From: a virus
Length of the DNA stretch: 48,593 bases
Virus genome (UHGV): UHGV-1371021
Direction: 5' to 3' (one strand)
The translations under genes were made by a program, and so were the position numbers. Positions 1,519-48,593 of the stretch are shown one piece after another (positions within the stretch are counted from its first letter, which is position 1; every line of letters starts with the position of its first letter). A model generated the notes under the pieces. That model was not told the origin of the DNA. It did not search any database and saw only the letters and a list, made by a program, of their open reading frames with translations.

Positions 1519-1547
1519 TGATGTTTCTACGTCAGTTAGCTTATACT
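1519..1547 (+). promoter_or_regulatory. sigma70-like promoter TTGATG-N17-TTATAC upstream of the primase gene
   Basis: Hexamers with 17-bp spacing about 30 nt upstream of ATG 1578. Overlaps a tctacgtca motif. Confidence 0.4.
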
Positions 1548-1577
1548 CAATCTACACCAACAATCAAGGGTCAATTT

Positions 1578-5059: not shown

Positions 5060-5088
5060 TTGACGTAGAATCATCGTTGATGTAGATT
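5060..5088 (+). promoter_or_regulatory. early rightward promoter TTGACG-N17-TAGATT
   Basis: Near-consensus hexamers with 17-bp spacing, about 30 nt upstream of the first early gene at 5119. Confidence 0.55.
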
Positions 5089-11298: not shown

Positions 11299-11327
11299 AT
11301 TCTACATCACCGGTATATCTACGTCAA
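11299..11327 (-). promoter_or_regulatory. leftward promoter TTGACG-N17-TAGAAT
   Basis: Hexamers with 17-bp spacing about 30 nt upstream of ATG 11264. Confidence 0.5.
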
Positions 11328-11365
11328 CATTTATTATTGTTGTTGATAAATACGCATCACCACAC

Positions 11366-11394
11366 TTGACCAATCTACACCGAGCGCATAGTAT
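11366..11394 (+). promoter_or_regulatory. rightward promoter TTGACC-N17-TAGTAT
   Basis: Hexamers with 17-bp spacing about 30 nt upstream of ATG 11425. Confidence 0.5.
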
Positions 11395-11424
11395 ATCTAC
11401 ATCAGGCTTACCGGAGATATCACT

Positions 11425-11631
11425 ATGCGCAGCTACGCAGGATTTACACAGGAGGAAAAAGAGCAGGTTTATTCGCTGGCGCGAGCTGGTGTGCCTGACG
11501 AGGTGATTTGTCGTCGGTATGACATCGACGAGGACTTCCTGCTTCGAGTCATTGATGATGTTTTTGTGAACCTGCAAGAGAAGCGCGGATATAAGGGTAT
11601 CTGCTGCAAGAATGATTTTTTGAGAGGGTGA
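11425..11631 (+). CDS. hypothetical protein (68 aa), possible HTH
   Basis: ORF track entry. First gene of the operon. Confidence 0.5.
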   Translation: MRSYAGFTQEEKEQVYSLARAGVPDEVICRRYDIDEDFLLRVIDDVFVNLQEKRGYKGICCKNDFLRG

Positions 11632-14075: not shown

Positions 14076-15006
14076 CGCCAGACTCCCACAACCGCGCATA
14101 TCGCAAAGCCTGACAGACCCGTTAGGCGCTGCGTCTCGCCTGTCTAAGATGGATAAGGTGATAACGCGCAAATACAAACAACTCAGAACTCGTGCGCTTG
14201 AGTTGTTTCGCACCATTCCTAGCAGTCAGGCCAACACAGAATCAAGCGGTCTGTATTTCTATGATTTCAGTAGTGCACGCGCTGCGACATTTATGGATGA
14301 GTTGCAGGCGCTGATTGACGAGATTCTGCTTGAAGGTGACGATTTCGGACACGGCAGGATGTGGGCCAATGTATTCATCGGTGATGCGTATCAAGCAGGC
14401 ACGCAGAAGGCTAACTCAGAACTGTCAAGCCTGTCTCCGGTTTATGCTGAACAGCGACCGATTGCTGCAATACTCTACAGTGAGCCTTATATGAATAGGC
14501 TGCGGTTGGCGTACACAGCCGGATACTCAGACTGGCGCGGATTGAGCGATTATTCCCGTCAGCAGCTGGCATCAGTCATTATGGAAGGTATTGCCCGTGG
14601 CGCTAATCCCCGCGATGTTGAAGCTGATATCGTTAAGCGCGTGGATGTGTCTCACAGCTACGCGAAACAGATTGCGCAGACAGAAATCACCGGAACACTA
14701 CGGCAGGCAAACAGGCGAGAAGTCATTGAGGCGCGCGAAGAATTGGGCATTGAGACGGTGATGCTGTGGCAATCGGCATTGATGCGCACGACTCGCCAGA
14801 CCCACGCGGCGCGACACGGACGTTTTTACACGCCAGAAGAGATTGACACGTTTTATAGCGAGAATGGCAATAGATATAATTGCCACTGCGCTCAAACTCC
14901 AGCATTGTTAATGGACGGTAAGCCTGTAATTCTTGAATCGTCGCAGGAAAGGCTTGATAAGCAGCGCGAGGCATGGCAATCGGCAAACAAAAAGCCCTCT
15001 AAGTGA
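14050..15006 (+). CDS. head morphogenesis protein (Mu gpF / SPP1 gp7 family)
   Basis: AQTEITGT....W.....[12 protein letters not shown] matches the Phage_Mu_F conserved block. Start uncertain, track ORF opens at 13975. Overlaps the portal 3' end. Confidence 0.8.
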
Positions 15007-15020
15007 GGGCTTTGATTTAT
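14991..15020. terminator. Rho-independent terminator (gccctcTAAGTgagggc + T-rich tail)
   Basis: Stem-loop containing the stop codon of the preceding gene. Confidence 0.7.
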
Positions 15021-15089: not shown

Positions 15090-15713
15090 TTAATCATCCA
15101 GTTTCACGCCGGGAATTTTGCCCGCTGCGATGGCGTCGTAAATGAATGTGGCATCATTAATTCTCGGGTCGTCACCATAATCAAACATTAACAATTCTTT
15201 TATCTTCTCCACTGCTGCTTCTCGCTTCCTTTCTGCTTCTGTACGGATGGGTCTGAATTTTAGTGAATCGCCACATGATGAAAAGTGGATATACTGCACA
15301 CCTTCAAATGTGTCACAAAGCATAACAACACCCTGAGTGCCAACAATATAATCAATCTTGCACTTCCACCATGTCCCACCTCCATTAAGAGAGTATTCAC
15401 ACTCACACCCAACTGGCGGCAGACCTTCGCCGTTCCATGCTGAATTTTTCGATGCTGCGAGCGCTGCTTTGTATTGCCAATAGGTTACTATCGACTCCTT
15501 ATGGTCGGAAGATAATGGAATAGCCACTTCTCCGCACCAGAAATACATAAGGATATTCCCAGTGTGATGTTTCCATGAGAACCCATCGTAGTGTGGGTCA
15601 TTCGTGTCCCATACGCACAGTGAACCGTCATTATCTTGAGTAATTGACAGCGCGTTTTGAGGCCACCCACCACGCTTAGGTAATTCTTGAACTAACAGGT
15701 CGATAAGTTTCAT
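15090..15713 (-). CDS. hypothetical protein (207 aa, Cys/Trp-rich)
   Basis: ORF track entry. Last gene of a leftward 5-gene operon. No recognisable domain. Confidence 0.6.
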   Translation of the reverse strand: MKLIDLLVQELPKRGGWPQNALSITQDNDGSLCVWDTNDPHYDGFSWKHHTGNILMYFWCGEVAIPLSSDHKESIVTYWQYKAALAASKNSAWNGEGLPPVGCECEYSLNGGGTWWKCKIDYIVGTQGVVMLCDTFEGVQYIHFSSCGDSLKFRPIRTEAERKREAAVEKIKELLMFDYGDDPRINDATFIYDAIAAGKIPGVKLDD

Positions 15714-15982
15714 TTTGTTTCTCCCAATGCCTTATTAACCGCCGAACGCGCATTATCCAGAGCGCGACGCTTGCTTGATGTTGTCCAGACTTTGCCGGAG
15801 TGGTCATCGTAGATTTCCAGTAGTTGTTGGAGTGCCGATAGCATAGCCTTGTTATTGTCGTGGCAATAACCAACAGAAAAGCCATGCCATAACTTATCCT
15901 TTTCGCTATCTGTCATATCGTTGAATCCAACTGAATCAAACCACTCACTAAATAATTGGTACACTTCGCGCTGCGTCATCAT
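15710..15982 (-). CDS. hypothetical protein (~90 aa)
   Basis: Track ORF 15710..16012 trimmed to the ATG at 15982/15979 that has a GAGG RBS. Confidence 0.5.
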   Translation of the reverse strand: MMTQREVYQLFSEWFDSVGFNDMTDSEKDKLWHGFSVGYCHDNNKAMLSALQQLLEIYDDHSGKVWTTSSKRRALDNARSAVNKALGETK

Positions 15983-15987
15983 CAACC

Positions 15988-16122
15988 TCACATAAGCCAT
16001 TGACCGTGGCAATCAATCCATGAAATCCATCGAGATACAGTCCATGCGCTTGTGTCGCCGCATGGAGTTGTGCAGGTAAACTTCCCTTCTTTAAATAAAA
16101 TGCGCTTTACATTCATTTCCAT
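15988..16122 (-). CDS. hypothetical small Cys-containing protein (44 aa)
   Basis: GAGG RBS. TCTTPCGD...CHG motif. Confidence 0.35.
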   Translation of the reverse strand: MEMNVKRILFKEGKFTCTTPCGDTSAWTVSRWISWIDCHGQWLM

Positions 16123-16130
16123 CACCAACC

Positions 16131-16284: not shown

Positions 16285-16506
16285 TTATCTGGCAAGAATC
16301 CACACATGCTTCAGTGCGGAGATAAACCTGCCAACCCTTGTTTTCCCTTTCAAATTGACCAGGTACATATTTGAAACTGAAGATTTCGCTCCATCACATA
16401 TCATTGTTATTGCGGTTTTATTTCCATCTTTGAGCCTTGTGAATACCATCTCGCCCTGCCCGGTAAGACTTAGCGTATTACTTTTTTTGTTAAGTTTTAT
16501 CTCCAT
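16285..16506 (-). CDS. hypothetical protein (73 aa), first gene of the leftward operon
   Basis: Track ORF starts at 16527. I place the start at ATG 16506, 6 nt after GAGGTG within the conserved leader GAGGTGATGAAGATG. Confidence 0.5.
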   Translation of the reverse strand: MEIKLNKKSNTLSLTGQGEMVFTRLKDGNKTAITMICDGAKSSVSNMYLVNLKGKTRVGRFISALKHVWILAR

Positions 16507-16611
16507 CTTCATCACCTCATTCGTCATTTGATGTAGATACTATGCACCACCTCTCAATCTACGTCAATAGCCATTGTGATAGAATTAATCATTATTTGAA
16601 CAGGAGGCAGA

Positions 16612-18193: not shown

Positions 18194-18220
18194 AAAAGCC
18201 CCGTGAAGGGGCTTGTGTTT
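18192..18220. terminator. bidirectional Rho-independent terminator (aagccccGTGAAggggctt)
   Basis: GC stem with an A-run upstream and a T-rich region downstream. Ends the leftward 18346..19870 operon. Confidence 0.75.
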
Positions 18221-19870: not shown

Positions 19871-19967
19871 ATTTATTACTCCTTTTCGAAATTTATTATT
19901 GACGAATCTACGTCACTTGGTCAATACTGTTGGTGTAGAATGATTCTACCACAACGAAAGGGGTGAT

Positions 19968-20171
19968 GTGGAAATGCAATACAAAGAAATAGCAGCGAGA
20001 TACCAGAAGGAGGTTCGCGAGGTTATGGAAATTCTTAACGTTCGCGAGGATACCATTAAGTTTGTGGAAACTGCCATGTGTTCATTGGCGCTTGAGGCGG
20101 AGGTTGCAGGTCGTGAAAAGGCTGACGAACTTATATCTGCGTTGGTTTATAGTTCAACCAGTAACGGTTGA
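19968..20171 (+). CDS. hypothetical protein (67 aa), GTG start
   Basis: AAAGGGG RBS 5 nt before GTG 19968. Confidence 0.5.
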   Translation: MEMQYKEIAARYQKEVREVMEILNVREDTIKFVETAMCSLALEAEVAGREKADELISALVYSSTSNG

Positions 20172-20426: not shown

Positions 20427-20671
20427 GCGCACCATATATGCCAATGATGAATGATGAAGGAATTTTAGAGTGCCCATTATGTCAATCGACAATAGCTCAT
20501 GCGGATAGTGTTGATAGCGAGTGGATTGTCGAGTGCTACGAGTGCGGATGCAAAACTGGTGCTTACATGACTGATAAGGGGGCAATTGAGTCATGGAATA
20601 CCCGCAACGGACACCTCTACACCGCTGACGACTTCAATCAGGCAGCAGAGGAGCGTGATCATGGATTATAA
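20414..20671 (+). CDS. lar: Lar-family restriction alleviation protein
   Basis: LECPLCQ.....(x)WIVECYECGCKTG........AIESWNTRN matches the Lar zinc-ribbon pattern (PCPFCG...V.C..CG....EAI.AWNRR). Confidence 0.6.
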   Translation: MDKMSAPYMPMMNDEGILECPLCQSTIAHADSVDSEWIVECYECGCKTGAYMTDKGAIESWNTRNGHLYTADDFNQAAEERDHGL

Positions 20672-21149
20672 GTCACAAATCATGCGCGTGATTATCAATC
20701 ATCCAGGAGCAACGCGTGCATACATTGAGAAGCATTGCGGCGGTAAGCATTCAAGCACCACAACGCATCGTCTGCATGAGATGCTTGCGCTTGGCTTCAT
20801 TCGCCGCGAGAAGTCGGTGATTCGTGGTGGAAAATGGCAGTATAAATATTTCATCTCTGACGATGCAGCTGGCATTGATGATGCGATTAAGTGCCATTTG
20901 CTTGATAACGAAGGCGCGGAAGTGAAAGAAATCAGCTCCGCCACTGGCATTGATTATCGCATCGTGAAAATCCGCATCCGCATTATGTTTCATAACGGTG
21001 ATGTAACGCGAAGCTATGACCACCACAAGAAGCTGTGGCGTTATTCATGGCGTGAGCAGGAGGTTAACGTCAGCAATCTGTTCAATTCACTGCTTCGCAA
21101 CGTAAGAGGTCAACATGGGGAAAGCAAAACGCAAGAAGCAAGAGTATGA
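20661..21149 (+). CDS. putative DNA-binding protein with two winged-helix-like repeats
   Basis: ATGA-coupled start at 20661 (track ORF opens at 20586). Two similar ~70-aa repeats rich in R/K. No named family. Confidence 0.5.
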   Translation: MDYKSQIMRVIINHPGATRAYIEKHCGGKHSSTTTHRLHEMLALGFIRREKSVIRGGKWQYKYFISDDAAGIDDAIKCHLLDNEGAEVKEISSATGIDYRIVKIRIRIMFHNGDVTRSYDHHKKLWRYSWREQEVNVSNLFNSLLRNVRGQHGESKTQEARV

Positions 21150-25867: not shown

Positions 25868-25894
25868 AAACCCGCATCATGCGGGTTTTTTATT
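25868..25894. terminator. Rho-independent terminator (aaacccgcATCATgcgggttttttatt)
   Basis: Stem-loop plus a 6-T run. Confidence 0.8.
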
Positions 25895-26755: not shown

Positions 26756-26790
26756 AAAAGAAAAGCCCCGCGAGGGGCTTTGTTTATTGT
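26756..26790. terminator. bidirectional Rho-independent terminator (aaagccccGCGAggggcttt)
   Basis: GC stem with an A-run and a T-run. Lies between convergent operons. Confidence 0.8.
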
Positions 26791-27678: not shown

Positions 27679-27899
27679 TTGTAGTTATCCTTCAGTTCAG
27701 CAATCATGTCATCTATGCACCTATCAGATTCAACATAATCACCACTTGCATTTTCAATGCAGGAAATCATTTCTTCAACACTAAAGTCAGATATGAGCAT
27801 AAATTCAATAATGCAATACATAGCAATTCTGAACTCATCATCTGAGTTGCATTGATTAAGTATATCTTTGATTGCGCACGTTACTTGTTGTTGATTCAT
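27675..27899 (-). CDS. small highly acidic protein (74 aa), possible DNA mimic
   Basis: D/E-rich sequence (SDDEF..EEMISCIENASGDYVESDRCIDDMIAELKD). ATGA-coupled. Confidence 0.5.
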   Translation of the reverse strand: MNQQQVTCAIKDILNQCNSDDEFRIAMYCIIEFMLISDFSVEEMISCIENASGDYVESDRCIDDMIAELKDNYK

Positions 27900-28708
27900 T
27901 TCATCTGCTCCAAAATCGCCATAACTTCCTGAATATCCTTCGCCTGAATCTGGATGAACTCTTCATCTTCTGGCATCACAAAGCCAGCCATGAATCGCAC
28001 ATGGTCAGCATCTTTCAGCAACTCAACCAGACGGTCAACTGGCTTAACCTTTTTCGCTTTGAGCACTTTAGCGGTAACTTTATCCTTGCCTTGCGCCTTT
28101 GCCTCAGTAACAGCTTCGTCGATAACCTTGACGGCATCATCACCATGCTCGCGGGTCACGGCAACAGCATTGGCATAGCTAATCTGCCCTAAGTTAATGC
28201 GCTCCTTGATTTCTGGTGGCACATCACCCAATGACAGATGCATTTGCACATCGGAAACTGAGCGACCAACTTTCTTAGCGATTTCCTCGTTAGTCCAGCC
28301 AAACCCTTTCAGACGCACATATGCTTTTGCACGTTCAAATGGGTCAAGCTGTTTACCCTGGCTTGATGACACCATGAATGCGATTTTGTCAGCTTCGTCG
28401 CCAGTGAAATCTTTGCACTCAATACGCGCGATAGGTGCGCCGCGTTCAATGGCCTTCAATGCGCCAAGATAGCGATGCTGACCATCAAGAATGCGGATTC
28501 CCTTCTCGTCCGGAATAACTGTTAATGCTGGCAGTGGCTGACCTGACTCCCAGCACTGTGCGAAATACTCCACATGCTGCTCATCTGCTTCACGGATGTT
28601 ATATCCCGGCTCCAGATAGATTTGCTCAACTGGCACGAGATAGGTTTTGTTAACAGCGATGCCGTTACGCGTTTCTTTGTCTGAATATATTTTGCTGAGT
28701 GTTTTCAT
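27896..28708 (-). CDS. ParB-like nuclease-domain protein with HTH (270 aa)
   Basis: ParB N-terminal motif IRILDGQHRYLGALKA, plus an HTH segment (GWTNEEIAKKVGRSVSDVQ). Confidence 0.75.
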   Translation of the reverse strand: MKTLSKIYSDKETRNGIAVNKTYLVPVEQIYLEPGYNIREADEQHVEYFAQCWESGQPLPALTVIPDEKGIRILDGQHRYLGALKAIERGAPIARIECKDFTGDEADKIAFMVSSSQGKQLDPFERAKAYVRLKGFGWTNEEIAKKVGRSVSDVQMHLSLGDVPPEIKERINLGQISYANAVAVTREHGDDAVKVIDEAVTEAKAQGKDKVTAKVLKAKKVKPVDRLVELLKDADHVRFMAGFVMPEDEEFIQIQAKDIQEVMAILEQMK

Positions 28709-29076
28709 TTTTTCTTTCCTAATGCTTTCTTGATCGCTTTGTTAGCCAGATTTAACGGATGGTCATCATGACAGTCATCGGAAGATACAGCGCAAACATC
28801 ATCAACGTAATCGCGAAGCTGGCGAAGTGCTTCGAGTAATTCTGGCGCTGCGGCTACTAACTTTGCATTCGACAAATGCTCAATGCGTGATACATCCCTA
28901 TGAGCGCCTTCATCGCTCCAGTGTTCAAACCCAGCCTTCTCCCAACCGGGGATAATTGCTATAGAATTAATCACCCTAATAATCCCAAAACCATTATCAT
29001 CAACTACATCAGTATAAACTTCATGGCGCTTAACGCACTCCCACTCACCTTTCGTACCCTTGAATTCATCTTTCAT
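28705..29076 (-). CDS. hypothetical protein (~123 aa), paralogue of 47350..47688
   Basis: Shares M.(D/N)EFKGTKG(E/P)W, AAAPELL.A...L and C-terminal AIKKALGK with the other copy. Confidence 0.55.
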   Translation of the reverse strand: MKDEFKGTKGEWECVKRHEVYTDVVDDNGFGIIRVINSIAIIPGWEKAGFEHWSDEGAHRDVSRIEHLSNAKLVAAAPELLEALRQLRDYVDDVCAVSSDDCHDDHPLNLANKAIKKALGKKK

Positions 29077-29275
29077 TTGATTCACCACTTTCTTCTAATA
29101 AAAGTTCATAGTTTGCAATGTATGCATTGGCCAGATGATACATTTGCTCTGCGGCGCAGCATTCTGGGCCGCTGAAGTCATCAATAGAGCCAGCATTGCT
29201 GAGTGCATCAACACAATTACGAAAATCAATCACGGTATTGCGGAACATACAGTAGTACATGTTTGCCATGATCAC
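29066..29275 (-). CDS. hypothetical protein (69 aa, Cys-rich)
   Basis: ORF track entry. Coupled to its neighbours. Confidence 0.45.
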   Translation of the reverse strand: MIMANMYYCMFRNTVIDFRNCVDALSNAGSIDDFSGPECCAAEQMYHLANAYIANYELLLEESGESNER

Positions 29276-29895
29276 TCCTCATCACCAGAATTAGCAATAT
29301 CGTAAAACTGACCGTAGGTTATCTGCTTAAAATCGTCAGGTATTGTTACCTGCCCATGACCTTCATCTTTTGTATTTGGCACGGCAAAAATCAGGCAATC
29401 ATCCTTTTGCGGGTGTTTGCCGCCATAAGTAGACAGCATTGCAAAACAAAGTCCGCGACCTGATTGCTCACAAATGCCCGTGCGCGCAATTCCATAATGA
29501 TTAACTATGTAGTCTTTCCATTCTGGCAATAACTTTAATTGCTCATTTGCTTCTCGCATCACTGCGTCCAGCTTTTTGTTGTATTCACGACCATCCTTTG
29601 TGTTTCCTTTCCCACGAGCCACAATTACACGCTGACCTTCCCAGAAGTCTTCGCGCTTTATTGTCACAGGGCACGGAAATTCAAACTGCTTACTCCACAC
29701 AAAGCTCTCAAGTAAGCCACCACCGACTGCTCCCCAGCTACGTGTCGTGGTGAAAGCGATAGCGCCAACCTTTTTCATTGCATCACCGAGAATTTCATTG
29801 CGGCGCTTTTGGATGTCATCATATGAGTCAATAACTTTCTTAACATCAGCACCTTCAACCATGTAATAATCATAATGTTTTGCGTTGCTGCTCAT
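29272..29895 (-). CDS. hypothetical protein (~207 aa), first gene of the leftward operon
   Basis: Track ORF starts at 29913. I place the start at ATG 29895, 6 nt after GAGGTG in the conserved leader GAGGTGATGAAGATG. Confidence 0.55.
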   Translation of the reverse strand: MSSNAKHYDYYMVEGADVKKVIDSYDDIQKRRNEILGDAMKKVGAIAFTTTRSWGAVGGGLLESFVWSKQFEFPCPVTIKREDFWEGQRVIVARGKGNTKDGREYNKKLDAVMREANEQLKLLPEWKDYIVNHYGIARTGICEQSGRGLCFAMLSTYGGKHPQKDDCLIFAVPNTKDEGHGQVTIPDDFKQITYGQFYDIANSGDEE

Positions 29896-29935
29896 CTTCA
29901 TCACCTCTAGCATTTATTGTTGTTTCTACGTCATT

Positions 29936-29964
29936 ACTATAAACACCCCATCAATCTACGTCAA
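29936..29964 (-). promoter_or_regulatory. leftward promoter TTGACG-N17-TATAGT driving the 29895..26784 operon
   Basis: Near-consensus hexamers with 17-bp spacing about 35 nt upstream of ATG 29895. Embedded in ATCTACGTCA motifs. Confidence 0.5.
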
Positions 29965-30011
29965 CAGGAATATGCTAAAATCATGCTAATCAAACAACAG
30001 GAGATTTAAAC

Positions 30012-32938: not shown

Positions 32939-33014
32939 TGGCACACCATGCAGGACTCGAACCTGCAACCAATAGCTTAGAAGGCTACTGCTCTATCCGT
33001 TGAGCTAATGGTGT
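32939..33014 (-). tRNA. tRNA-Arg (anticodon TCT)
   Basis: 76-nt cloverleaf on the minus strand. 7-bp acceptor stem ACACCAT/ATGGTGT, T-arm GCAGG-TTCGAGT-CCTGC, anticodon loop CTTCTAA, 3' GCCA. Confidence 0.8.
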
Positions 33015-33020
33015 TTAATG

Positions 33021-33108
33021 TGGCGGATAGTACAGGATTCGAACCTGTGAACCGTTTCCGGTTTATCGGTTAGCAACCGACTGCTTTCTGCCTCTCAGCC
33101 AACTATCC
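33021..33108 (-). tRNA. tRNA-Ser (anticodon GCT) with a long variable arm
   Basis: 88 nt. Acceptor stem GGATAGT/ACTATCC, anticodon loop TTGCTAA, long variable arm, T-arm CAGG-TTCGAAT-CCTG, 3' GCCA. Confidence 0.8.
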
Positions 33109-33546
33109 GTTGATTTAGTGCTGGTTTAAGCATTGCCAGCGTGCTTTCTTAACATCCAGCCCCGTAACCCATACATACCCCTACATATGATTGCGATAAT
33201 GCTGGATATTAAGTGTTGTGGCTCTGGTGCCTCCAGATTGCTGGTCGGTAAATCCAGCAGGTAATCTCAAAACCGAAGTAGTGTTTTTTTACCTTGCCGC
33301 GTGCGCATAGCCGCATTACCACAACGGAAAGGGCACTGATGCGCTCACTTGGGACTCCTTAGCCATAACCCACGGGCTTCTGGTACACCAATGCTCTTAC
33401 CTGTTGTGTGCCGGTTACGCGTCAGGCGTCTCTCGACCGCTAATTATTTTGACTTCTTCAAATTGAGATTTCATTCATTTTGGTCACCTTCCTTTCAGAA
33501 AGCTGAAAACTCACGCATAAATCAATTCATATCTTAAGTAGACTTT
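33109..33546 (-). other. 430-nt ORF-free leader of the leftward tRNA/HNH transcript, a candidate structured or regulatory RNA
   Basis: No ORF of 60 codons or more on the transcribed strand. Several hairpins. Mini-ORFs of 6, 10 and 16 codons with strong SDs (AAGGAAGGTGA, TAAGGAG). Directly downstream of a consensus promoter. Confidence 0.3.
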
Positions 33547-33575
33547 AATCTACACCACAAAATAATCACTGTCAA
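33547..33575 (-). promoter_or_regulatory. leftward consensus promoter TTGACA-N17-TAGATT
   Basis: Perfect -35 and near-perfect -10 with 17-bp spacing, pointing toward the leader and the tRNAs. Confidence 0.6.
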
Positions 33576-34347: not shown

Positions 34348-34374
34348 GAAAAGCCCCGGAAGGGGCTTTGTTTT
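34348..34374. terminator. bidirectional Rho-independent terminator (aaagccccGGAAggggcttt)
   Basis: GC stem with an A-run and a T-run. Contains the stop of the minus-strand ORF. Confidence 0.8.
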
Positions 34375-34639
34375 ATTCTTGTGGTGGCTCTGGCAGTGGC
34401 ATCCAGTGGGTGGCATCACTAATCAAGCCATATTCATTAGTTTGATGGTGATTACCGCGCCCATCTCCGTATTTAAAACTCTCCATAAAGCCATAATGTT
34501 TATCACCATTAATGTTCACAAAACCGTAATAAGCAGGAATAACGCCGATCTCACAAGCAACCAGTAAGGGAAAACTAGTTCTCCAGTTTAGCTCGCCAAT
34601 TACAGGAATCCGCTCACTGCACTTAATCCACTGGATCAT
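34373..34639 (-). CDS. DUF551-domain protein (88 aa)
   Basis: C-terminal ...ATHWMPLPEPPQE signature. Similar to the C-terminus of the 7510..8445 protein. Confidence 0.55.
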   Translation of the reverse strand: MIQWIKCSERIPVIGELNWRTSFPLLVACEIGVIPAYYGFVNINGDKHYGFMESFKYGDGRGNHHQTNEYGLISDATHWMPLPEPPQE

Positions 34640-34986
34640 AACTTATCCTCATTCATTTTCAGGAAGACGATCATGGCGGCGCGTAGTGGGTTTTTATCTT
34701 GAGTAAAGTGGTATGGCGTATCATCATTGCCAACCTTTCTGTGAGTAGCTTTCCACAAGCCATTATCTGGTGCTGGAATAGTACCAATTCTGTTTTCAAT
34801 AATAATAGGCTCAGCATCCTCTGGATTATTGCATGGGTCAAATTCAATCTCGTTAAAGTCGGCGTAAGAACCAGTATCACACTCGACAAATCTAACAGGC
34901 ACGCCATCATCATTAAATGTCACACCAGCAATAAGCGCTACCGCCTTATTAATCTCAAAATCACTCATTTCTTCATAATTTTTCAT
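34636..34986 (-). CDS. NinX/DUF2591-like protein (116 aa)
   Basis: MSDFEINKAVA...PCNNPEDAEPII pattern. Recall-level assignment. Confidence 0.45.
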   Translation of the reverse strand: MKNYEEMSDFEINKAVALIAGVTFNDDGVPVRFVECDTGSYADFNEIEFDPCNNPEDAEPIIIENRIGTIPAPDNGLWKATHRKVGNDDTPYHFTQDKNPLRAAMIVFLKMNEDKL

Positions 34987-35122
34987 ATCACCTTATCCTC
35001 ATCAAAAATCACACCAATAACACGAAGCAAATCTTTCGCCATTCTCTATGCTTCTTCGTAGTCATAACCTGCATCAACATACAGTTCAGTGTAGAAAATC
35101 AGGTCAGATTTTGTTTGTTCGT

Positions 35123-35332
35123 TCATTTCTTGTCATCGCTCTTAACTAATGCCCAAACAAGCGCTGCAACCCAGCCAATAAAACTCCATCCAACGAGAAT
35201 ATTCAGTACACAGATTGCAGTCGTATTTGTGTGCTTTCTTTGCAATGCCACAAATGATGGGAGAAGATAAGCAAATATAACCAATCCAGCGAAAAGCAAC
35301 AAAATAACAACATCCATAACTACCTCATTCAT
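35123..35332 (-). CDS. superinfection-immunity-like small membrane protein (69 aa, 2 TM)
   Basis: YLLPSFVAL.RKH.N..AI.VLNILVGWSFIGWVAALVWAL resembles the Imm_superinfect family motif (LGWT.IGW..ALVWA). First gene of the leftward operon. A 26-codon ORF (35049..35126) is coupled downstream. Confidence 0.5.
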   Translation of the reverse strand: MNEVVMDVVILLLFAGLVIFAYLLPSFVALQRKHTNTTAICVLNILVGWSFIGWVAALVWALVKSDDKK

Positions 35333-35351: not shown

Positions 35352-35380
35352 AATCTACATCACCACCTAGCAGGTGTCAA
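35352..35380 (-). promoter_or_regulatory. leftward consensus promoter TTGACA-N17-TAGATT
   Basis: Perfect -35 and TAGATT -10 with 17-bp spacing. Overlaps the rightward extended -10 promoter (TGATATAAT at 35392..35400). Confidence 0.55.
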
Positions 35381-35420
35381 CACCACTGAGATGATATAAT
35401 CAACATCAGTCAAATTCAGG

Positions 35421-44479: not shown

Positions 44480-44523
44480 CACCATGCAAAATAAACATTT
44501 TGCATGGTGATAACAAATGTTAT
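44480..44523. repeat. two adjacent perfect palindromes (13-bp-arm hairpin CACCATGCAAAAT-aaac-ATTTTGCATGGTG, then ATAACA-aa-TGTTAT)
   Basis: Exact inverted repeats between the convergent tail fibre and SSB genes. Possible bidirectional terminator or protein-binding site. Confidence 0.5.
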
Positions 44524-45061: not shown

Positions 45062-46102
45062 TTAAAATCCTTCAATTGGAGTTGGTTTATGTTCGGTTTT
45101 TGCTTCTTCCTGCTGTTCTGGCTGATGATGTTTAGGTTTAGCCAGTTTTGCAGGGTCGAAATTATCCTGCGGAGTTATTACCACAGGAGATAATTGCTCA
45201 TCGTTTATGAAAGACTCAATGCGATCGTATTCAGCAGCCGAAGCAGCCAGAGAAGGCCAGATTGCGCGAATCTTATCTTTCAGGTTGTCAGGTATTGATT
45301 TTGCTTCTTCCTTCAAGCCTTCCATGCCTTTTGCGGCGGAAAGCTGAAGTCGTGATCGCCATGACTCAAACTCTTCATCAACTTTGACGCCAGAATCTAC
45401 CCATTTAATTAAACCTCGTCCATGTGCTTCACCGATATATCCGTGGTGCTGGCTATCACGACCTGATTCGAAAAAGATAGGGCGCAATTCTTCTGGCAGT
45501 TTCGTGAAGTCCTGAACCTTACCGTTATCATACATCATCATGCTAACCGTCATTTCGAACATGAAATCTTTTTCGCATACCGGATGCAGCCCAAGCGGCA
45601 TTGGGTCTTTCGGGTTACTGAAGTCAGTTTTGTTTCGCGCGCGCAGACAGACAATTATATGCATGTTGCTCTGCAATAGCGCACTCATGAACTTTTTGTG
45701 CTCGGCTTTGGCGCGCTTCCAGTCTGCCATCTTCTTGCCATTAAGTAGAGGCTGGTCAGCGATATCTGAACAACCGCCTTCGCCTTCCCATTCATGAGAG
45801 CCAGAGTCTATTACCAGCACCTTAACTCCAGCCTTCTGAAACTCTTCGATAGCCTGACGATAGCGAGCAGGGCTGAATGGCGCATACAGGTCTGCATGCA
45901 GGAAATTACCATCAAGGATATTTGAATACAGTCGACCACGCCCATTTTCAGTGTCGAGAAATCCAATCTCTGATGGAGAGTCAACCATTCCACGCGCCAG
46001 TTTAAGTGCGCTATATGTTTTCCCGCTACCAGACTGACCGGAGATACCAATTACCACACGAGAACCTGAGCGCTCTGCGGGTTTGATGTTAAGGATGCTC
46101 AT
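45062..46102 (-). CDS. RecA-fold P-loop ATPase, Sak4-like recombination protein (346 aa)
   Basis: Walker A GISGQSGSGKT. Located between the exonuclease and SSB genes. Confidence 0.55.
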   Translation of the reverse strand: MSILNIKPAERSGSRVVIGISGQSGSGKTYSALKLARGMVDSPSEIGFLDTENGRGRLYSNILDGNFLHADLYAPFSPARYRQAIEEFQKAGVKVLVIDSGSHEWEGEGGCSDIADQPLLNGKKMADWKRAKAEHKKFMSALLQSNMHIIVCLRARNKTDFSNPKDPMPLGLHPVCEKDFMFEMTVSMMMYDNGKVQDFTKLPEELRPIFFESGRDSQHHGYIGEAHGRGLIKWVDSGVKVDEEFESWRSRLQLSAAKGMEGLKEEAKSIPDNLKDKIRAIWPSLAASAAEYDRIESFINDEQLSPVVITPQDNFDPAKLAKPKHHQPEQQEEAKTEHKPTPIEGF

Positions 46103-46374
46103 TTTTTATTCCTCTCAGATAACATAGCGTCAGCATACTCATAATTCATCAACGCCCAGGTACCATAAAAAACCTTACGCGTTAAATCGTCAGCCATATC
46201 AGGATTGTCATCACCATAAACCTTTTTAACCTGTTCGAAGGTGATTGGTGATTTTGATGCAAAAAAATCACGTAATGACATACCTTCCTGCCCTAATTTT
46301 TCAAATCCTTTGTCATACCCATTGGCCTGATAATCTTCTCTTGGGAATGCTGGCCCACCTGTTTCTTTGCTCAT
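46099..46374 (-). CDS. hypothetical protein (91 aa)
   Basis: ATGA-coupled ORF. Confidence 0.5.
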   Translation of the reverse strand: MSKETGGPAFPREDYQANGYDKGFEKLGQEGMSLRDFFASKSPITFEQVKKVYGDDNPDMADDLTRKVFYGTWALMNYEYADAMLSERNKK

Positions 46375-46390
46375 TTCATCACCTCATTTA

Positions 46391-47349: not shown

Positions 47350-47688
47350 TTATTTTCCTAATGCTTTTTTGATTGCCGACTCTGCTTTTTCTTTTCCGAT
47401 TTCAACATCCATCAATGTTCCATCACGCAGTGCCATTAACAACCACTGGCAAGCATCAAGTAATTCAGGTGCTGCTGCCATTAAATTAAAGTCATGCTCA
47501 ACGCTACAATCCATAGCCCAATAAGTGCCATTAAATTTTGCGTTTTTATTTGAGTATGCAATGTTTCTATCATCATCAAAGTGACAACCAGGAGTTTCAT
47601 CGCACCTGCATTTTGGGTAAATTGCCGCACAACCGCCACGAATATCAGCAAACCACGGTCCTTTTGTACCTTTAAATTCATTTTCCAT
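47350..47688 (-). CDS. hypothetical Cys-rich protein (112 aa), paralogue of 28705..29076
   Basis: MENEFKGTKGPW...AAAPELLDA...AIKKALGK. Start at ATG 47688, 6 nt after GAGGTG in the conserved leader. The track start at 47697 is in frame. Confidence 0.55.
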   Translation of the reverse strand: MENEFKGTKGPWFADIRGGCAAIYPKCRCDETPGCHFDDDRNIAYSNKNAKFNGTYWAMDCSVEHDFNLMAAAPELLDACQWLLMALRDGTLMDVEIGKEKAESAIKKALGK

Positions 47689-47718
47689 CTTCATCACCTC
47701 ACTATTTATCGTTAAATG

Positions 47719-47747
47719 AATCTACATCAATCTACATCATTCATCAA
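47719..47747 (-). promoter_or_regulatory. leftward promoter TTGATG-N17-TAGATT driving the recombination operon
   Basis: Tandem GATGTAGATT copies. 17-bp spacing. About 25 nt upstream of ATG 47688. Confidence 0.55.
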
Positions 47748-48168
47748 GTCCAAAGTAGAATAAAGTCGCTTTTTTTATTTGCTCAAGCCCTCCAGCAACC
47801 GCAGCAAATGCGCCGGATTCCGCGCTTCTATTGAGAAATGGTATCTGCCCAGGTTGCCACTCGCTAAGGTTTGTATCATGCCGCTTCAGCTCAATAGTGG
47901 CCTTGTGCCAGTTAATTCCTGGTGTAAGTATCACCACGTCAGACACGCCAGAAAGGACTCCCTTCCTTCGTCTGCTTTCAAGGTATTGCGGAGTTGGCTT
48001 CCTTGTCTCGTTTGGTGTGTGAAACCAAAGAACATCCGGTAACTTATGATTCATCCACATCCAGTAACCTATCAGATCAGTATCCTCATGTGGACAATCT
48101 CCGTGATACTCATCATCAAAGATAAATACCGCATCACTCAATTCATGCTGCTTGAATTTTTTCTTCAT
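47737..48168 (-). CDS. VRR-NUC domain nuclease (143 aa)
   Basis: KGVLSGVSDVVILTPG..WHKATIELKRHD...S..Q fits the VRR-NUC (PD-(D/E)XK) pattern. Confidence 0.7.
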   Translation of the reverse strand: MKKKFKQHELSDAVFIFDDEYHGDCPHEDTDLIGYWMWMNHKLPDVLWFHTPNETRKPTPQYLESRRRKGVLSGVSDVVILTPGINWHKATIELKRHDTNLSEWQPGQIPFLNRSAESGAFAAVAGGLEQIKKATLFYFGLDE

Positions 48169-48593
48169 TCACTTCACCCAAAAAATCCTTCCTGTGAATA
48201 ATGTCACGGCCTTTATCATTAATTCGATGCGTGATACGTTTTGGCGCACGAATCAACGCAGCGTACATCATGAACGTTTTCGCGTTTTGGCAATCCATCA
48301 TCTTTTTCATCATGGATTTATCTGCCAGGTGCGGAAGTAGCGCTTTCATTTTAAACATATCCCGCAGATGCTTTGGCTTTCCACCAAACGGATAGAACAC
48401 TTCATTGGCCCATCCCTTTTTGCCATTGGATTTCATGCAGAAATAGCGATAAAGAATGCCATCGCTATCTTTGGTTAATTCAACCTTGAAATCTTCAACA
48501 TCAGTCCATTCATTGTCGGTATATGCTCGCTCATTGAGTGCTGCGTTTGGGTCACGCAGAACATGATCGCAATGACGACAATAACGAGCTGTC
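48143..48593 (-). CDS. C-terminal 150 codons of the SF2 helicase, continuous in frame with 1..1503 across the window junction
   Basis: Reverse strand is open from 48593 down to the stop at 48143..48145. The codon ccg is formed by positions 2, 1 and 48593. Additional CxxC/CxHC zinc-ribbon motifs (RYCRHCDH). Same frame as the track ORF at 48143..48436. Confidence 0.75.
   Translation of the reverse strand, partial: TARYCRHCDHVLRDPNAALNERAYTDNEWTDVEDFKVELTKDSDGILYRYFCMKSNGKKGWANEVFYPFGGKPKHLRDMFKMKALLPHLADKSMMKKMMDCQNAKTFMMYAALIRAPKRITHRINDKGRDIIHRKDFLGEVNEEKIQAA

Follow-up and report, generated by a model that had tools for sequence, protein, structure and literature searches.

A Shine-Dalgarno and start-codon 15-mer repeated at the edges of hypervariable gene slots in a Jersey-like siphovirus genome

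Why should a virus genome carry the same 15 nucleotides at the starts of three unrelated genes? The question is raised by UHGV virus genome UHGV-1371021, analyzed here at its full length of 48,593 nucleotides (the window), which derives from a Jersey-like siphovirus of Enterobacterales (Deseoctovirus/Jersey-like). The plus-strand 15-mer CATCTTCATCACCTC occurs exactly three times in the window, against 0.07 copies expected, and 0/100 dinucleotide-preserving shuffles gave three. An earlier note on this DNA, made from the letters alone, had reported three copies and supposed the 15-mer to be infrequent elsewhere in the genome, which proved correct: no extra matches appear at two or fewer mismatches, and only three more, unrelated-looking, appear at three mismatches. 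The copies, with their Shine-Dalgarno (SD) sequences and genes, are as follows.

16504..16518, minus strand: 15-mer copy 1, comprising the SD GAGGTGAT, GAAG and ATG; starts gene 16506..16285 (73 amino acids [aa], no family match)
29893..29907, minus strand: 15-mer copy 2; starts gene 29895..29272 (207 aa, phrog_2260), whose STGO-35-1 homologue is annotated "EaC protein"
47686..47700, minus strand: 15-mer copy 3; starts gene 47688..47350 (112 aa, phrog_1273/PF27050)

We read the 15-mer as a module for strong translation initiation that borders hypervariable accessory-gene slots on their 5' side and that the slots have in common through descent and recombination; we put the probability of this reading at about 65%. 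The minus-strand form is GAGGTGATGAAGATG, and its final three bases open an open reading frame (ORF) at all three sites. On the coding strand, an extended SD, GAGGTGAT, is followed by a 4-nt spacer, GAAG, and the start ATG. The SD is complementary over 8 nt to AUCACCUC, a part of the 3' end of Escherichia coli 16S rRNA. This complementarity, the ATG 4 nt away and ORF homologues that begin at the same residue point to an SD initiation region, in agreement with the earlier note. Judged by sequence comparison, the second ATG of the 15-mer is the start codon and the first is not, because the first is often out of frame in natural variants. The leaders are predicted to lack structure (0 to -5.4 kcal/mol). 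Folding of the three modules did not differ from that of shuffled sequences (z = -0.37, +0.24 and -0.03) and gave no hairpin in common, and an Rfam scan matched only two tRNAs and nothing at the leaders. An RNA structure or riboswitch in the leaders was rejected given the nonsignificant folding and the lack of an Rfam leader match.

The start codon is also where sequence conservation ends. The closest relatives are Escherichia phage C1, Shigella phage DS8 (Deseoctovirus), swi2, STGO-35-1 and IME207, at ~88 to 92% identity over 60 to 70% of the sequence. The window was compared with all fetched relatives by blastn, and alignments covering the leader were counted. Homology stopped within -9 to +11 of the ATG in 24/26 alignments at site 1, 66/75 at site 2 and 25/25 at site 3. 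It returned at about +200 at site 1 (gene 2), at +1150 to +1190 (the ParB start) or +600 at site 2, and at +300 to +340 (the exonuclease start) at site 3. The 136-nt site-2 module is present in 206 GenBank phage records, and nearly all of these alignments end at the start codon. We also observed that the "Salmonella phage seszw" GenBank records (MZ3752xx/MZ3753xx/OL9647xx) keep the site-2 module at 96.7% identity while their lengths fall from 45.9 to 37.7 kb.

What lies beyond the joint varies widely, and the 15-mer itself is one allele among several. An IMG/VR search for GTAGA-N10-40-15-mer returned 76 stretches, of which ~55 are Jersey-like contigs with the 15-mer in four leader contexts: A, the ParB cluster; B, the recombination arm; C, divergent from the lysis operon; and D, probably the divergent region at 19.9 kb. 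Leader scans were run irrespective of the presence of the 15-mer so that junction alleles could be counted. The type A leader is constant through TTAGAGGTGATG, and between that point and the ATG lie 2 to 4 variable nt. At the GAGGTGATG-N2-4-ATG junction, the most frequent allele is the exact 15-mer, with a share of ~30 to 50% (~21/71 at A, ~7/25 at C and about half at B), and one gene (MSSNAKHYDYYM...) was found with six different spacers. Behind the four leader types, the exact 15-mer precedes ~15 unrelated first-gene families; thus, the same boundary does stand before different cargo in related phages, as the earlier note had anticipated. Nine contigs carry the exact 15-mer at two slots. Under independent assortment of slots, a few percent of genomes would have it at A, B and C, so the triple identity seen here needs no special event. 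Among the relatives, exact copies number zero in C1, zero in STGO-35-1, one in DS8 (recombination site) and one in IME207 (ParB site). A conserved sequence at the operon starts of relatives therefore holds for the promoters, which are kept, and fails for the exact 15-mer, which C1 and STGO-35-1 lack. Polymorphic at every slot and absent from 2/4 close relatives, the 15-mer is, on this comparison, not a required regulatory site. The same 15-mer also stands exactly at a gene start, in a translationally coupled junction, in unrelated IMG/VR contigs (L005/L070/L071 and L014/L016/L039), which shows it to be a generically usable initiation region.

DNA has moved between the slots as well as within them. 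According to PHROGs, phrog_1273 comprises the first gene at site 3, gene 3 of cluster 2 and the C-terminal half of gene 4 of cluster 1; its homologues bear the precomputed Pfam label PF27050. Paralogs are thus found in all three clusters, directly upstream of a core gene, and their conserved 3' end (..A.SAIKKALGK) provides the ribosome-binding site (RBS) of that core gene. In addition to the site-3 gene, the paralogs are the following.

28705..29073, minus strand: PF27050/phrog_1273 paralog of cluster 2, MKDEFKGTKGEW...; adjoins ParB upstream, with its 3' end (..AIKKALGKKK) forming the ParB RBS
15710..15997, minus strand: cluster 1 gene 4, PF27050-like in its C-terminal half only (..AVNKALGETK); just upstream of core gene 15713..15090

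Members of the family vary in the body of the protein but are conserved at the N terminus (MxEFKGTPGPW) and in the helical C-terminal half. Among the 37 members in the fetched loci, bodies group across slots, while C-terminal tails group by slot. The "...PGPW-ADIRGGCAA..." type, for example, follows leader A in locus L096 and leader B in both the window and L078, and in L141 it lies within cluster 1. Between L096 and L141, identity is 90 to 100% over gene nt 0 to 210 and falls to random levels upstream (33 to 47%) and downstream (37 to 53%), from which we conclude that a segment of ~215 bp moved between nonorthologous slots. Its left breakpoint lies at the start codon and its right breakpoint in the HDFNLMAAAPELL region. 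At leader A, L067 has an MKDEFKG gene directly after the 15-mer, where the window has an 819-bp two-gene insert. The earlier note had suggested mobilization at a shared boundary; the breaks in homology at the ATG and the movement of gene bodies between slots bear this out, except that the operons themselves are not mobile. As to the function of PF27050/phrog_1273, sequence searches of a local copy of Pfam-A and of the PDB gave no match. An AlphaFold2 model of the protein (pLDDT 88) predicts a small beta-sheet followed by a two-helix hairpin, and a Foldseek search of the PDB with this model gave no match better than E = 0.86.

Taken together, the module would consist of a host-RNA-polymerase (sigma-70-type) promoter with TGAYGTAGA repeats, a short unstructured leader, GAGGTGAT, a 4-nt spacer and ATG. 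Such modules would precede short hypervariable accessory-gene slots, themselves placed ahead of fixed core genes (ParB-like, exonuclease and others), and would give immediate, strong expression of any small gene landing behind them. The exact 15-mer would be the commonest SD-to-ATG junction allele in the phage population, and its three copies would be identical here because the slots are evolutionarily related, with one paralogous family, PF27050/phrog_1273, as the usual occupant. DNA would have been exchanged repeatedly at and between slots by recombination, with the left crossover at the RBS/start and the right one either within the PF27050 gene, in its conserved 3' portion, or at the next core gene.

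Several observations weigh against this reading. The 15-mer is linked to particular cargo, both at site A (PF27050, 17/30, versus other genes, 5/27; p = 0.006) and at site B (MDIEIP-type, 9/9, versus exonuclease-first, 0/9), which implies that it moves in part together with its cargo instead of being a constant component of the leader. Selection alone, acting after random illegitimate recombination, would likewise leave breakpoints at gene starts, in which case the 15-mer would mark survivors rather than crossovers. Many loci were selected for containing the 15-mer or the leader, and this introduces ascertainment bias. Promoter activity, "early" timing and translation strength are predictions from consensus. 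Finally, common descent of whole modules is at best weakly suggested by the sequences. The leader between the -10 and the SD is not common to the three sites; the aligned regions share the promoter motif and the 15-mer only, although sites 2 and 3 both have ATAAAT-N3-4 ahead of the 15-mer. Ungapped similarity between leader types upstream of the 15-mer was not above a shifted-register null, itself imperfect, as leaders A and B can apparently be aligned if small indels are allowed. Duplication of a whole module was rejected on the basis of this comparison with the imperfect null. The single reused promoter-leader-start unit proposed in the earlier note is thus not supported by alignment of the three regions, and the co-regulation of operons that it was taken to imply would instead stem from a promoter motif common to ~10 promoters, most of which lack the 15-mer.

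Related initiation sequences mark further variable genes. GGTGATG-type SDs head variable cluster genes (six exact copies and, at the cluster-2 PF27050 paralog, one that has diverged) and no core or late genes. The window has 42 copies of GGTGATG against 9.7 expected, many of them Gly-Asp codons. Genome wide, in four relatives, the association between a GGTGAT-type SD and gene variability is suggestive (Mann-Whitney p = 0.009, Fisher p = 0.06, with 2/9 being start-call artefacts). The related sites are listed here.

46372..46385, minus strand: near-copy GAGGTGATGAAATG, one base shorter; heads gene 46374..46099 (91 aa, phrog_2201)
16114..16126, minus strand: related RBS GGTGATGGAAATG; heads DUF5484 gene 16116..15988, a hypervariable slot with coverage 0.0 in relatives
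29267..29286, minus strand: related RBS GGTGATGAGGAGTGATCATG; heads gene 29269..29066 (67 aa, phrog_8760)
29071..29085, minus strand: GTGGTGAATCAAATG, a diverged copy of the RBS at the distal boundary of the 819-bp two-gene insert; heads PF27050 paralog 29073..28705
19960..19976, plus strand: variant GGGGTGATGTGGAAATG, behind the divergent promoter region 19895-19942

The 46374..46099 slot is hypervariable and lies inside the recombination operon without a promoter of its own. The phrog_8760 gene is the first gene behind a type A leader in another contig. The GGGGTGATGTGGAAATG site is likely the counterpart of the type D slot, where other contigs have the exact 15-mer. Several relatives carry a slot A gene annotated as anti-restriction, and these annotations, taken at that level, fit early anti-defence or accessory roles.

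The earlier note had also placed each 15-mer downstream of a promoter, at 20 to 35 nt. A -35/N17/-10 promoter-like site does precede every copy, at a measured 18 to 28 nt, and by consensus all three sites carry a candidate sigma-70-like promoter. That of site 3 was read by eye at 8/12 consensus matches, under the threshold of the scan. The promoter-like sites ahead of the 15-mers and others of their class are as follows.

16539..16567, minus strand: promoter-like site 1 (cluster 1), TTGACG-N17-CATAGT, 20 nt from the 15-mer; conserved in L001-L004; motif TGACGTAGA at 16558-16566 overlaps the -35, and an inverted copy at 16529-16537 lies just past the -10
29936..29964, minus strand: promoter-like site 2 (cluster 2), TTGACG-N17-TATAGT, 28 nt from the 15-mer; the motif is found at 29955-29963 (-35) and 29925-29933 (~+1)
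47719..47747, minus strand: promoter-like site 3, TTGATG-N17-TAGATT, 18 nt from the 15-mer; tandem motifs at 47731-47739 and 47721-47729
5060..5088, plus strand: same promoter class, TTGACG-N17-TAGATT, with motifs at 5061 and 5078, 17 bp apart; RBS GAGGGTGAAGAGATG
11299..11327, minus strand: same promoter class, TTGACG-N17-TAGAAT, with motifs at 11318 and 11301 and more at 11396 and 11374
35352..35380, minus strand: same promoter class, TTGACA-N17-TAGATT, with a motif at 35354; heads leftward cluster 35332..34373
1526..1559, minus strand: motif copies, TGACGTAGA at 1526-1534 and GGTGTAGATTGA upstream of TGACGTAGA; before the DEAD-box helicase gene starting at 1502

The TAGATT-type -10 that had been ascribed to all three sites is found at site 3 only, sites 1 and 2 carrying CATAGT and TATAGT. 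The TCTACGTCA/TCTACATCA motifs noted in these promoters are real, and the shared promoter type stands: TGAYGTAGA has 14 copies in the window against 0.74 expected (0/100 shuffles that high), all of them intergenic, starting at 1526, 5061, 5078, 11301, 11318, 11396, 16529, 16558, 19907, 29925, 29955, 35354, 47721 and 47731. Looser copies are found at 1551, 11374, 19934 and 33549. With the looser form KGRYGTAGAWW, the motif marks ~10 promoter-like sites, nearly all of which face either a leftward cluster or, at 5061, the rightward early region. At 5060-5088 and 11299-11327, two copies 17 bp apart supply both the -35 (TTGACG) and the -10 (TAGATT/TAGAAT); other layouts are -35/+1 (site 2), -35 plus an inverted copy after the -10 (site 1) and a tandem pair 10 bp apart (site 3). 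TGAYGTAGA promoters stand at equivalent places in C1, STGO-35-1, DS8 and IME207, with 10 to 13 motif copies each. Conservation of TTGACGTAGATTG reaches at least 97% across 59 distinct type A promoters, as does that of the TAGATTG portion beside the -35, while the neighbouring spacer is variable. This pattern suggests constraint beyond the sigma-70 hexamers, and TGAYGTAGA(TT) looks like a putative factor-binding site or an unusual promoter element. A literature search found no published description of the motif or of these promoters, and the only Kagunavirus transcriptome paper found holds no promoter or 5' end data.

Some further features of the promoter regions were noted. Extended -10 candidates, TGATAGAAT at 16577-16585, TGCTAAAAT at 29973-29981 and TGATATAAT at 35392-35400 (all plus strand), lie ahead of the operons for lysis, head-tail and tail genes, all rightward. 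TGATAGAAT and TGCTAAAAT begin 9 to 10 nt past the inverted motif TCTACGTCA, back-to-back with the leftward promoters, so that one bound factor could affect both directions. Genes for tRNA-Arg(TCT) and tRNA-Ser(GCT) occupy 32939-33014 and 33021-33108 (both minus strand). A TTGACA-N17-TAGATT promoter of the class described (33547-33575, minus strand) lies ~440 nt upstream of them, with no convincing ORF in between; in STGO-35-1, the corresponding position holds a tRNA-Met. A conserved element of ~85 nt is found downstream of the terminase gene (11340-11425, minus strand; L001, ~33160-33260; L003, ~28740-28840; L004, ~2450-2550), in which an 8-bp inverted repeat, CGCATAGT...ACTATGCG, surrounds a copy of TGATGTAGA and is followed by GGTGTAGATTGG. 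It is kept in relatives even without the adjacent promoter and gene.

How the slots sit in the genome bears on whether the clusters could be recent arrivals. The DEAD-box helicase ORF (1-1502 and 48146-48593, both minus strand) exits the left end of the window and continues in frame from the right end; thus, the window represents a complete, circularly permuted genome. Because the helicase ORF joins across the window ends, site 3 can be read as an internal promoter of a long leftward arm running from helicase to SSB, in the order helicase, VRR-NUC-like gene, site 3, PF27050 gene, PD-(D/E)XK exonuclease, small gene, AAA_24 and SSB. Sites 1 and 2 head leftward clusters between rightward late operons, each ending at a bidirectional terminator-like hairpin.

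14991..15013, no strand assigned: bidirectional terminator-like hairpin; ends cluster 1
26762..26781, no strand assigned: bidirectional terminator-like hairpin; ends cluster 2
44480..44509, minus strand: terminator-like hairpin, 13 pairs; ends the recombination arm after SSB

The description of all three as leftward operons set against late genes therefore applies to sites 1 and 2, site 3 being internal to the arm. The contents of the clusters were correctly described: a ParB/KorB helix-turn-helix protein (27896-28708), a weak beta-clamp-like match, a PD-(D/E)XK exonuclease, AAA_24 and SSB. A MarR-like gene lies at 20586-21149. Bidirectional terminator-like hairpins of the AAAGCCCC...GGGGCTTT type were in addition observed at points where leftward and rightward units converge, at 14991-15013, 18196-18214, 25868-25888, 26762-26781 and 34350-34369. 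In the gene-by-gene analysis, which covered four complete relatives only, the three clusters, their promoters and their core genes (ParB, exonuclease and SSB) occupy the same places in 4/4, and the leading one to three small genes alone are exchanged. By this comparison, the clusters are ancestral architecture and not insertions, and the proposal that whole operons are inserted or mobile units was abandoned.

Could the three copies have arisen without exchange between slots? Chance repetition, with no common cause, has only the small copy number in its favor and is already refuted: the expectation of 0.07 copies is met by no shuffle reaching three, all three copies occupy the same functional position, and the 15-mer recurs at the same positions in dozens of related contigs. 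Pure convergence, in which a near-optimal initiation region was selected independently at several early genes with no part played by recombination, has more to recommend it, since 8-nt anti-SD complementarity with optimal spacing, the occurrence of the 15-mer at gene starts in unrelated IMG/VR contigs and the lack of significant ungapped leader similarity upstream all agree with it. Under convergence, however, the SD should become fixed but the 4-nt spacer GAAG should not. Late genes with high expression dispense with the 15-mer, and the same gene is often found with natural spacer variants, which argues against strong selection for the exact string. Insertions and inter-slot DNA transfer starting at the 15-mer were, moreover, observed directly, and we regard convergence by itself as unlikely.

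Two regulatory explanations read the 15-mer as a binding site. As a translational operator, it would be the RNA site through which a phage repressor or small RNA shuts off the early accessory genes together, in the manner of T4 RegA targets or as suggested for the start-associated sequences (SAS) of Cluster K mycobacteriophages. An identical sequence over the SD and AUG of three unrelated genes, with positions 9 to 12 (GAAG) not explicable by 16S pairing, would fit such a role, for which SAS elements offer a precedent (PMC3203893), and relatives encode an ASCH-domain protein, the counterpart gene in DS8 being called only "RNA-binding protein." It is, however, the non-SD half that is polymorphic at every slot (GAA, AG, AA, AGG, AAT...), two close relatives have no copy of the 15-mer at all, and neither a common RNA structure nor an Rfam match was found. 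No candidate repressor was identified, a RegA homologue not having been sought across the whole proteome; this explanation appears quite improbable. On the DNA level, TGATGAAGAT within the 15-mer might instead be a degenerate copy of the promoter motif TGATGTAGAT, giving the same factor three sites per promoter. It is one mismatch from the motif, the three copies at site 2 are spaced exactly 30 bp apart (29955, 29925 and 29895), and the conserved TAGATTG beside a variable spacer suggests a bound factor. Yet the mismatch falls on the T of GTAGA, which is invariant in 14/14 genuine copies, natural variants diverge further from the motif (GGAAA, GAGAT), the spacing is inconsistent at site 1 (52 bp) and site 3 (10 and 33 bp), and no factor is known. 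We consider a third operator highly improbable, and TGATGAAGAT was rejected as a third TGAYGTAGA copy on account of its polymorphic 3' half and the mismatch at an invariant base.

Within the reading of the 15-mer as a shared start module at variable slots, a bolder proposition is possible though doubtful, namely, that the three (or four) promoter-RBS slots and the conserved 5' and 3' ends of PF27050 form a dedicated cassette-diversification system acting by gene conversion among paralogous slots. The phage exonuclease, annealase and SSB would drive the conversion; the left arm would be the 15-mer plus the first 11 codons, and the right arm the HDxNL-AAAPELL...KALGK region. If true, such a system would act continually, recombining the variable N-terminal domains within an early protein family and taking up new accessory (possibly anti-defence) genes, making it a virulent-phage analogue of antigenic-variation or integron-like systems. 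The start-module reading itself already yields a concrete map of exchangeable-gene sites in therapeutic-candidate enterobacterial phages (Jersey-like, Deseoctovirus and related genera), with at least four slots, each behind a defined (predicted) promoter and a strong ribosome site. For annotation, the map may help to correct start codons and to spot accessory or anti-defence candidates; for phage engineering, the slots may serve as natural "landing pads" with predicted strong early expression. The analysis also brings out a promoter-associated TGAYGTAGA motif with ~14 copies per genome, and it helps to explain how mosaicism is organized in phages other than the T4 and mycobacteriophage models.

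Three known systems invite comparison. In lambdoid phages, mosaic joints fall at gene boundaries and "morons" are recognized, as set out in the modular theory and by Hendrix and colleagues. The slots resemble these in having joints at gene boundaries, and clusters 1 and 2, with their own putative promoter and terminator, lie antisense between late operons. They differ from morons in that the clusters occupy the same place in all four complete relatives, only the leading genes varying, and from lambdoid mosaics in that a specific repeated RBS sequence marks the joints. The SAS of Cluster K mycobacteriophages are short asymmetric repeats with an SD core, found 3 to 7 bp from the ATG of nonstructural genes at 11 to 19 per genome (Pope et al. 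2011, PMC3203893). The 15-mer is likewise a short asymmetric repeat with an SD core near the ATG (here including it) of unrelated nonstructural genes, in a single orientation and not at structural genes. It departs from SAS in sequence and host, in copy number (3 exact, or ~10 if every GGTGATG core is counted) and in having no ESAS-like inverted repeats. The bases of SAS that do not pair with 16S rRNA are strongly conserved, whereas those between GAGGTGATG and the ATG vary freely here. A T4 RegA-type operator should be conserved at orthologous mRNAs and have a cognate RNA-binding repressor gene; the operator-like part here is polymorphic or absent in relatives.

The closest likeness is to the PeSL (promoter-early stem-loop) cassettes of T4-type phages, in which a promoter, a stem-loop and an SD plus start lie upstream of ORFans and mediate shuffling (Arbiol et al. 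2010, PMC2839356; Comeau et al. 2014, PMC4122927). Like PeSL, the present unit is composite and repeated, joins a sigma-70-like early promoter (predicted here) to a 3'-terminal SD and start codon, and stands upstream of ORFans in plastic regions; for both, gene shuffling by recombination between copies has been inferred. The stem-loop/terminator component is missing here, where only site 1 has an inverted motif pair, and membership in PeSL was rejected on account of this absence. There are ~10 promoters per genome here versus ~50 in PeSL, the promoter here bears its own TGAYGTAGA repeat, and the hosts of the element are small siphoviruses rather than T4-type myoviruses. Mini-circles are a PeSL feature; for the present system, the comparative evidence is of an insertion at the RBS and of inter-slot transfer. 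The piece shared between slots is mostly the RBS/start and the ends of one gene family, not a whole cassette. Thus, the 15-mer slots, of which no description was found for this phage lineage, are a variation on the known phage mosaic-boundary cassettes.

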